The notes beneath the pieces were generated by a model, which was not told the origin of the DNA, made no database searches, and worked only from the letters and a program-made list of their open reading frames with translations. The position numbers and the translations under genes are program-made. A DNA stretch of 64,000 nucleotides from Escherichia coli (lineage in GTDB: Bacteria; Pseudomonadota; Gammaproteobacteria; Enterobacterales; Enterobacteriaceae), in NCBI RefSeq assembly GCF_003018235.1, contig NZ_CP027437.1; one strand, 5' to 3'. This document shows, in pieces, positions 16,735 to 16,972 of the stretch (positions within the stretch are counted from its first letter, which is position 1; the number at the start of each line of letters is the position of its first letter).

Positions 16735-16946
16735 TCATCCCCCTCATCCACGTTTGATAAGAGCGGCGAGTATTCTTGCTGATGCTACTCATTGCTTCCC
16801 CCCCTTTACACCTTAATGCCGTTCCCCCCACACAGAACAAATTGTTTATACCTGGCTGAGTAAATAACCTTATTGTTAGTATGGGTATACTGGGTGATGA
16901 TAACCCCGCAATTTCATTATTCATTGTTCTCCCATAGGATGAGGTT

Positions 16947-16972
16947 TCCCGCCGTAACTGGCGGGCTTTTTT
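16947..16972 (+). terminator. Orphan plus-strand intrinsic terminator
   Basis: Stem cccgcc/ggcggg with loop gtaact followed by CTTTTTTT; no annotated plus-strand gene ends here. Confidence 0.5.

Follow-up and report, generated by a model that had tools for sequence, protein, structure and literature searches.

What does a strong intrinsic terminator end when no annotated gene lies in front of it? The question is raised by a stretch of 64,000 nucleotides of an Escherichia coli chromosome (RefSeq assembly GCF_003018235.1, contig NZ_CP027437.1), called the window here, in which an intergenic region of 365 bp separates minE, at the end of the minCDE operon, from a convergent autotransporter gene. 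Three hairpins lie in this region: T1 terminates the min operon, T3 terminates the autotransporter gene from the opposite side, and T2 stands between them. An earlier, sequence-only reading had suggested that T2 could end a small RNA or a micro-protein transcript. We conclude that T2 is probably the Rho-independent terminator of an unannotated, Hfq-dependent small RNA (sRNA) at about 16908-16973, and that this RNA is the one entered without a name of its own, as minE.ycgI.IGR, in a published survey of Hfq-bound RNAs. The small-RNA half of the earlier suggestion is thereby supported from three sides: by a terminator that chance does not explain, by the conservation of the block in front of it, and by the recovery on Hfq of an RNA with a tract of seven U from the same region and strand. 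The central features are these:

16948-16973, plus strand: T2, a hairpin with a U7 tail (stem CCCGCC/GGCGGG at 16948-16953/16960-16965, loop GTAACT, then C and T7 at 16967-16973).
About 16908-16973, plus strand (K-12 about 1224043-1223978, minus strand): proposed sRNA of about 66 nt, placed by conservation and by an entity with a U7 tract found by RIL-seq, in which interacting RNAs are ligated and sequenced; the 5' end is uncertain.
16910-16947, plus strand: invariant body and putative seed AAUUUCAUUAUUCAUUGUUCUCCCAUAGGAUGAGGUUU, which contains the anti-Shine-Dalgarno-like motif UUCUCCC.

The terminator T2

T2 consists of six to seven pairs, six of them G-C, around a loop of four to six nucleotides, with a predicted hairpin energy of about -12 kcal/mol. 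When such a site is defined by six perfect pairs (at least five of them G-C), a loop of 3-8 nucleotides and T7 within 2 nt, T2 is the sole member of its class on either strand of the window, and 200 first-order Markov simulations give a mean expectation of 0.015 sites per window. T2 is not a chance feature. According to the fold prediction the hairpin also forms on the minus strand, where it runs into AAACC; T2 terminates the plus strand only. The sequence-only reading had thus recognized a genuine plus-strand terminator, which it placed one base off at each end (16947-16972); its distance of some 270 bp from the minCDE terminator holds when counted from the stop codon of minE (16678), whereas the end of T1 is only about 213 nt away. 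It was also right that no plus-strand gene is annotated here: between ycgI (1223564-1223907) and minE (1224279-1224545) the K-12 record NC_000913.3 carries nothing, and no PGAP annotation lies under the match to the 77-nt block described below in the E. coli records listed.

A conserved block in front of the hairpin

Conservation was measured by BLAST against 5,426 complete E. coli genomes and in a metagenome scan that yielded 75 Escherichia-type segments with 44 distinct alleles; since the search pattern of the latter fixed positions 16912-16932, the genome survey is the unbiased measure. A block of 77 nt (16896-16972) is present in 5,315 of the 5,426 genomes as a single copy and with no paralogue; identity is at least 99% in 4,117 of 5,316 records and 95-99% in 1,199, with 5 records below 95%. 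The adjoining 161 nt (16735-16895) are detected by megablast in just 2,388 genomes, and 1,620 of those are 80-90% identical. An alignment of eight E. coli alleles with that of Escherichia albertii gives the same picture, near-invariant from about 16896 to the T-run while the surroundings drift. E. albertii is identical to E. coli across 57 nt (16908-16964) with flanks that are about 50-78% identical; its min terminator is different and its spacer unrelated in sequence, and the 57-nt stretch is identical nonetheless.

Within the block, the body at 16910-16947 has 36 of its 38 sites invariant among about 45 alleles (16912-16932 being fixed by the search pattern), so that the candidate seed region is conserved above its flanks. 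No E. coli allele departs from the hexamer GATGAT (16896-16901), which is AATGAT in E. albertii; the eight bases 3' of it tolerate insertions and deletions of 1-2 nt, and the interval between T2 and T3 has only 5 of 38 sites invariant. The block is intact in K-12 and most other strains despite the decay of the neighbouring autotransporter gene to a remnant of 344 bp.

The element is narrow in its range. Among 80 Enterobacteriaceae loci, homologues adjoining minE occur only in E. coli, one Escherichia sp. contig and E. albertii, and there is none next to minE in E. whittamii, two other Escherichia genomes, Salmonella, Citrobacter, Kluyvera or Enterobacter. In three other Escherichia lineages the whole stretch 16679-20764, which comprises the intergenic region, the sRNA candidate, the autotransporter gene and the ymgJ side, is missing as a unit, and about 185 bp of unrelated DNA link minE to the ymgI/ymgG side. 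An origin in a mobile element was considered and set aside: phage sequences contain no match to the block, and the matches labelled as plasmid are non-mobilizable records, several of them chromosome-sized. A covariation test of the structure is impossible with an invariant RNA body and terminator variants that are uncompensated.

Two further observations concern the block itself. In E. coli CE0032f (NZ_CP118997.1, 1315630-1317148) it lies in two pieces about 1.4 kb apart that share a 13-nt overlap, which looks like disruption by an insertion sequence and would make this strain a natural knock-out. Secondly, unrelated organisms share the 21-mer TTTCATTATTCATTGTTCTCC (4 alleles on 6 metagenome contigs with unrelated flanks). 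Its reverse complement is GGAGAACA-ATG-AAT-AAT-GAA, which suggests, judging by the letters, that in those contigs it is a ribosome-binding site followed by the start codon of a gene; the case illustrates that the core of the sRNA is essentially an anti-ribosome-binding-site sequence.

An Hfq-bound RNA from the same interval

Further support comes from the Hfq RIL-seq data of Melamed 2016 as re-analysed by Bar et al. 2021 (Supplementary Table 1, PMC8175672), which list an unnamed RNA, minE.ycgI.IGR, with a U-tract of 7. For stationary phase the table counts 137 of its chimeric fragments in 5 unique interactions and gives it a SIC of 0.8; for exponential phase there are 12 fragments and 1 interaction. 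Its sRNA score of 0.276 falls between those of RybB (0.292) and Spot 42 (0.228). As SIC is S - 1/k with k = 5, S is 1.0, and minE.ycgI.IGR is therefore the second RNA in every one of its chimeras, which is the signature of Hfq-bound sRNAs. The listing places its segments within 50 nt of a U7 tract, and on either strand of the intergenic region T2 alone has seven U, T1 having five; the order of the genes in the name agrees with the min strand, and the name fliC.fliA.IGR behaves alike. In stationary phase chimeras are eleven times as numerous as in exponential phase; this suggests that the RNA is expressed in the former, which fits the 18 reads found downstream of the Rho-dependent termination peak in exponential cells (PMC7815308; see below).

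The conserved 66-78 nt that end at T2 have the anatomy of an Hfq-dependent sRNA. In the predicted fold a weak 5' stem of 9 bp (AAUUUCAUU with AUGAGGUUU) leaves 16919-16938 open; the open, invariant AUUCAUUGUUCUCCCAUAGG includes the anti-Shine-Dalgarno-like UUCUCCC and is followed by a U-rich stretch, the GC hairpin and U7. From work by Otaka, Ishikawa and Aiba, the module bound by Hfq reportedly consists of a terminator hairpin, a U-rich stretch before it and at least six U after it, and such a module is present here as GGUUU, the hairpin and then CUUUUUUU.

We therefore picture the following. The sRNA would be transcribed mainly in stationary phase from a weak promoter of its own (TTGTTA-17-GATGAT), perhaps under a stationary-phase sigma factor or regulator, and would end at T2. 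Hfq would hold the module that runs from the U-rich stretch through the hairpin to the U-tail at the 3' end, while the largely single-stranded AUUCAUUGUUCUCCCAUAGG would pair with the translation-initiation regions of a handful of mRNAs.

Some searches for partners or relatives came back empty. A duplex scan of the 64-kb window gave nothing beyond the antisense strand and matches at shuffle level, the best non-self duplex being antisense to umuC with shuffle-level energy. A long-range pairing of CCUCAUCC (16742-16749) with GGAUGAGG (16938-16945) in a 241-nt fold (z = -2.7) is not relied on, an 8-mer match of this kind being expected by chance about 0.2 times. An Rfam 15 scan of 14000-21000 in E-value mode returned chance-level matches only (E >= 0.78), with none on 16896-16973, and a full-text literature search for a named sRNA at the minE-ycgI locus found none. 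The element is thus uncatalogued, with no RefSeq K-12, PGAP or Rfam entry and no name in the literature, and present in a supplementary RIL-seq table.

A separate RIL-seq observation comes from enteropathogenic E. coli (EPEC; NC_011601), where an Hfq-bound RNA from 1330963-1330975 on the minus strand (about 17240-17255 of the window, plus strand) forms 22 chimeras with ArcZ (p = 5e-39). It lies on the min strand, about 295 nt past T2 and antisense to the autotransporter remnant; min-strand transcripts that extend past T2 and T3 therefore exist and interact with ArcZ.

Promoter and 5' end

Where the proposed RNA begins is less clear than where it ends. A consensus scan, the kind of promoter prediction that the sequence-only reading had called for, finds no sigma-70 site of at least 9/12 in the intergenic region. 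The best-conserved candidate is the following:

16873-16901, plus strand: putative promoter with -35 TTGTTA (16873-16878), a 17-nt spacer and -10 GATGAT (16896-16901).

GATGAT ends 7 nt before the point from which E. coli and E. albertii are perfectly identical, and the candidate would place the start of transcription at about G16908, exactly at that point. The 5' end could nevertheless lie anywhere between about 16884 and 16910, because the candidate is weak and two stronger-looking -10 hexamers fail in common alleles: TATACT (16886-16891) reads TATCCA in 7 contigs, and TATTGT (16871-16876) reads TGTTGT in about 9. Readings by eye of a sigma-28-like site (GATGATAA against GCCGATAA), a sigma-E-like site and a PhoP-box-like site gave poor or non-conserved matches.

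Points against the proposed small RNA

Several results weigh against an sRNA gene at this locus and keep our confidence in it well short of certainty. At 0.276 the sRNA score does not reach 0.5, and the main text of the survey is silent on the RNA (PMC8175672). Term-seq of K-12 in LB at optical densities of 0.4 and 2.0 and in M63 has no curated 3' end near 1223978-1223984, the position of T2 (PMC7815308); should the sRNA exist, there is little of it in total RNA in these conditions. The promoter candidate, with 8 of 12 consensus positions, falls short of the threshold of the scan, and its -35 element varies: a common allele has TCGTTA, E. albertii TGGTGA; supplements of transcription start sites from Cappable-seq and SMRT-Cappable-seq hold no entry for the region in either coordinate system. 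The terminator itself has variants that weaken the stem without compensation, one of them a common allele, G16961A, seen in 17 metagenome contigs together with a tail of 8-9 U. Finally, a small open reading frame (ORF) on the minus strand has its Shine-Dalgarno sequence and its start codon in the invariant block, and the needs of that strand could account for some of the conservation.

The C-rich tract and Rho-dependent termination

What, then, is the C-rich DNA between T1 and the block? Two features matter here:

16735-16840, plus strand: C-rich, G-poor untranslated tract, likely a rut region (C 37%, G 14%, C/G 2.5).
16880-16895, plus strand: approximate peak of Rho-dependent termination (K-12 1224064(-) maps to about 16887; Adams 2021, Supplementary file 2).

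The unusual C-runs noticed upstream of T2 by the sequence-only reading are real: C5 at 16739-16743, C7 at 16798-16804 and C6 at 16824-16829, and with 37.6% C and 14.9% G the interval 16735-16835 stands at the 99.86th percentile of C minus G among all 100-nt windows on both strands. C/G exceeds 2 (2.1-2.9) in all nine alleles including that of E. albertii, though the sequence diverges. The tract follows the minE stop codon and T1; the peak of the Rho score is found 50-150 nt downstream of it and about 20 nt upstream of the invariant block.

The K-12 counterpart of this peak is an "orphan" Rho region at 1224064(-) with a Rho score of 24.9 (p = 3.6e-67), where 230 reads upstream and 18 downstream were counted without bicyclomycin and 293 and 571 with it (PMC7815308). 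Rho scores are calculated in windows of 800 nt, and the position of the peak is accordingly approximate. The locus thus shows what is expected of a Rho-dependent terminator, namely a C-rich, G-poor, untranslated RNA of about 100 nt and, in published data, a rise of read-through upon inhibition of Rho. The C-tract is likely a rut-type zone that deals with read-through of T1 and is separate from the body of the sRNA: Rho would load on 16735-16840 and halt transcripts that escape T1 at about 16887, before they reach the proposed sRNA gene or the convergent autotransporter gene. The suggestion that the C-tract forms part of a functional transcript finds no support, as it is hypervariable within E. 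coli and coincides with the K-12 region of Rho-dependent termination.

On the variability itself, many E. coli are about 86% identical over 16735-16895, with changes in the length of the C-runs, while minE and the 77-nt block are near-identical. This suggests either old divergent alleles or mutation-prone homopolymers.

Alternative explanations

The alternative that survives best accepts the same Hfq-bound RNA and denies it a promoter: transcription of minCDE would read through T1 and the Rho zone to T2, and RNases would trim the product to a Rho-gated sRNA derived from a long-range 3' untranslated region (UTR). This would explain why no strong promoter is detected and why the RNA lies on the min strand, downstream of min. 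It also agrees with the rise of coverage downstream of K-12 1224064 by about 30-fold (from 18 to 571 reads) upon addition of bicyclomycin, and with the EPEC transcripts of the min strand that reach well past T2. Under bicyclomycin, however, downstream coverage exceeds upstream coverage (571 against 293), which pure read-through could not attain and which argues for initiation somewhere within or near the downstream window of 800 nt. Moreover, Rho normally removes read-through ahead of T2, T1 and the spacer are unrelated in E. albertii where the block is identical, and an invariant -10-like hexamer stands 7 nt before the perfect identity begins. We consider an origin by read-through unlikely, if worth keeping in mind.

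A related idea is that the output of the sRNA is gated by Rho, so that when Rho is low or antagonized transcription from min reaches T2 and the invariant 3' piece is released onto Hfq; in a variant, the RNA would also silence in cis the opposite-strand transcription that comes from the autotransporter side. If true, it would couple the dose of the sRNA to the status of Rho and to the expression of min. We regard such gating as a speculation with the balance clearly tilted against it.

A different explanation turns to the minus strand, where the sequence-only reading, which listed only micro-ORFs of 11-18 codons, had overlooked an ORF of 69 codons (on the plus strand there are also ORFs of 20-40 codons when alternative starts such as TTG are allowed):

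16715-16924, minus strand: antisense small ORF, 69 amino acids in the window and 36 in most E. coli, with Shine-Dalgarno sequence GGGAGA and ATG at 16924.

Both signals fall inside 16908-16973, antisense to the sRNA candidate. A small protein, MNNEIAGLSSP... (36 amino acids in most strains), could then begin in the block, which would supply its 5' UTR and Shine-Dalgarno sequence as well, with or without control in cis by an antisense RNA from the plus strand. The spacing between Shine-Dalgarno sequence and ATG is good, and about 85% of contigs, like E. albertii, keep the frame open for at least 31 codons. Pairwise dN/dS stays below 1, the proposed sRNA covers the Shine-Dalgarno sequence and the first five codons, and the T2 hairpin folds on this strand as well. 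The protein itself, in contrast, is poorly kept. It has 36 amino acids in 63 of 76 metagenome contigs and 39 in E. albertii and is frameshifted to 15 in 8 of the 76; its C-terminus moves with insertions and deletions in the C-runs, giving lengths of 36-69, and residue 19 is R, G, V or W, which are radical replacements. The excess of substitutions at third codon positions is not significant, either within E. coli (4/2/8, p = 0.135) or against E. albertii (9/5/11, p = 0.33). The peptide lacks hydrophobicity of the type I toxin kind and has no Pfam or NCBIfam match; it is almost never predicted by gene callers, has just 3 counterparts in 15 billion proteins and is not among the curated small proteins of K-12. 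Between T3 and T2, where only the 5 of 38 sites are invariant, there is no conserved minus-strand promoter, and the U7 signal in RIL-seq stems from the other strand. The ORF is probably non-coding, and a small-protein function of the block very doubtful. The micro-protein transcript imagined by the sequence-only reading fares no better, for no plus-strand ORF ends before T2, and the minus-strand ORF is frameshifted in about 10% of alleles, with a codon bias that is non-significant.

A further alternative, which we think highly improbable, makes T2 a fail-safe terminator that shields the convergent autotransporter gene, with incidental binding of U-tailed products by Hfq; the convergent genes, the 40 nt that separate T3 from T2, the binding of many terminator U-tails by Hfq, and the lack of a curated Term-seq peak at T2 and of a known target speak for it, but a terminator requires only a hairpin and a U-run, and it is these that vary while the 38 nt before them are invariant in E. 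coli and E. albertii, the element is perfectly kept where the autotransporter gene is a remnant, and five distinct partners with the RNA always second in the chimera are sRNA-like. The possibility, foreseen in the sequence-only reading, that the hairpin is merely a secondary min terminator likewise fails to account for those 38 bases, although some role as a back-stop is possible.

Relation to known systems

As an Hfq-dependent intergenic sRNA, the candidate resembles RybB, MicA and SdsR (60-110 nt) in its size class, its GC-rich hairpin with seven U and the preceding U-rich stretch, its invariant single-stranded region, its recovery on Hfq as the second RNA of chimeras and its enrichment in stationary phase. 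Unlike these, it has no name, Rfam model or annotation, is low in abundance with no Term-seq peak, and is restricted to E. coli and E. albertii at the minE locus.

A second group, UhpU, FliX, MotR, MalH and SdhX, began as RIL-seq candidates and was validated later. UhpU comes from the 3' UTR of uhpT, FliX from fliC and MotR from the 5' UTR of motA. The supplementary ranking that includes minE.ycgI.IGR gives comparable scores: 0.347 for uhpT.EST3UTR, 0.272 for fliC.fliA.IGR and 0.158 for motA.5UTR, against 0.276 for minE.ycgI.IGR (PMC8175672). The members of this group derive from UTRs of mRNAs, whereas about 230 nt, with an intrinsic terminator and a Rho zone among them, separate the candidate from the stop codon of minE.

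The C-tract is comparable to C-rich rut terminators such as the orphan Rho regions of Adams 2021 in its C-rich, G-poor, untranslated RNA of about 100 nt, in a peak 50-150 nt downstream and in its strong sensitivity to bicyclomycin; it differs in lying directly behind an efficient intrinsic terminator and directly ahead of an sRNA candidate. Finally, complementarity to the Shine-Dalgarno sequence and first codons of a small ORF on the opposite strand is shared with SymR/symE and type I toxin-antitoxin loci, from which the present ORF differs in not being conserved as a protein, not being hydrophobic, having no detectable promoter and being frameshifted in a common allele.

The biology of sRNAs has its reference organism in E. 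coli K-12, and yet this locus is unannotated in RefSeq and Rfam. Few intergenic stretches of the neighbourhood are as conserved as this element, which outlasts the decay of the neighbouring gene and is bound by Hfq in high-throughput data. With a name, the identity of its five partners and a regulator, the sRNA network of stationary phase would gain a lineage-restricted node, confined to E. coli and E. albertii. The order of intrinsic terminator, Rho zone, sRNA gene and convergent terminator is a compact natural case of layered termination that would insulate a small gene from a strong upstream operon. Both mechanisms, that of the sRNA and that of Rho, are already known and no general concept is altered; the significance would grow if gating by Rho or a link to the division operon proved true.

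Neighbouring features

The surrounding features are as follows:

14877-16678, plus strand: minC, minD and minE, in this window of the E. coli chromosome.
16705-16735, plus strand: T1, intrinsic terminator of the minCDE operon from a terminator scan (hairpin 16705-16728, 10-bp stem, loop of 4, GUUUUU).
17012-17029, minus strand: T3, terminator of the autotransporter gene, ACTGCGC-TTCG-GCGCAGT followed by TTTTCGTTT (the tail is given also as UUUUCGUUU).
17044-20565, minus strand: autotransporter gene, 1173 amino acids, convergent to min and YpjA/EhaD-like in the annotation of near-identical genomes.

For T1, the Term-seq 3' ends of K-12 at 1224225/1224224(-) correspond to 16732-16733, within its U-run (Adams 2021, PMC7815308). 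T3, at 17029-17012 on the minus strand, had escaped the sequence-only reading and is kept in E. albertii. The autotransporter gene is intact in the window; most E. coli have only its 344-bp 3' remnant, which in K-12 is the pseudogene ycgI (1223564-1223907).

In strain UTI89, an enrichment in an expression library selected for filamentation (1,297,038-1,299,321, about 14800-17400 of the window) spans minCDE, the intergenic region and the ycgI homologue, and the authors could not separate linkage to minC from an activity of the downstream DNA (PMC6206680). In the leader of minC (about 14800-14858; K-12 1226099, minus strand) there is an "orphan" Term-seq 3' end, seen in two conditions (Adams 2021, PMC7815308), some 19 nt ahead of the start codon of minC and just past the hairpin ATCATCGC-GCGC-TGGCGATGAT; it could belong to an RNA derived from the leader, or else mark where the leader of the min operon is attenuated or processed. 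The linker of the autotransporter (17960-18160, minus strand) contains a long run of Pro-Asn and Pro-Thr dipeptides (PNPNPN...PTPT), and its DNA consists of tandem repeats of the GGTTCG type that appear as false hairpins in the terminator scan.

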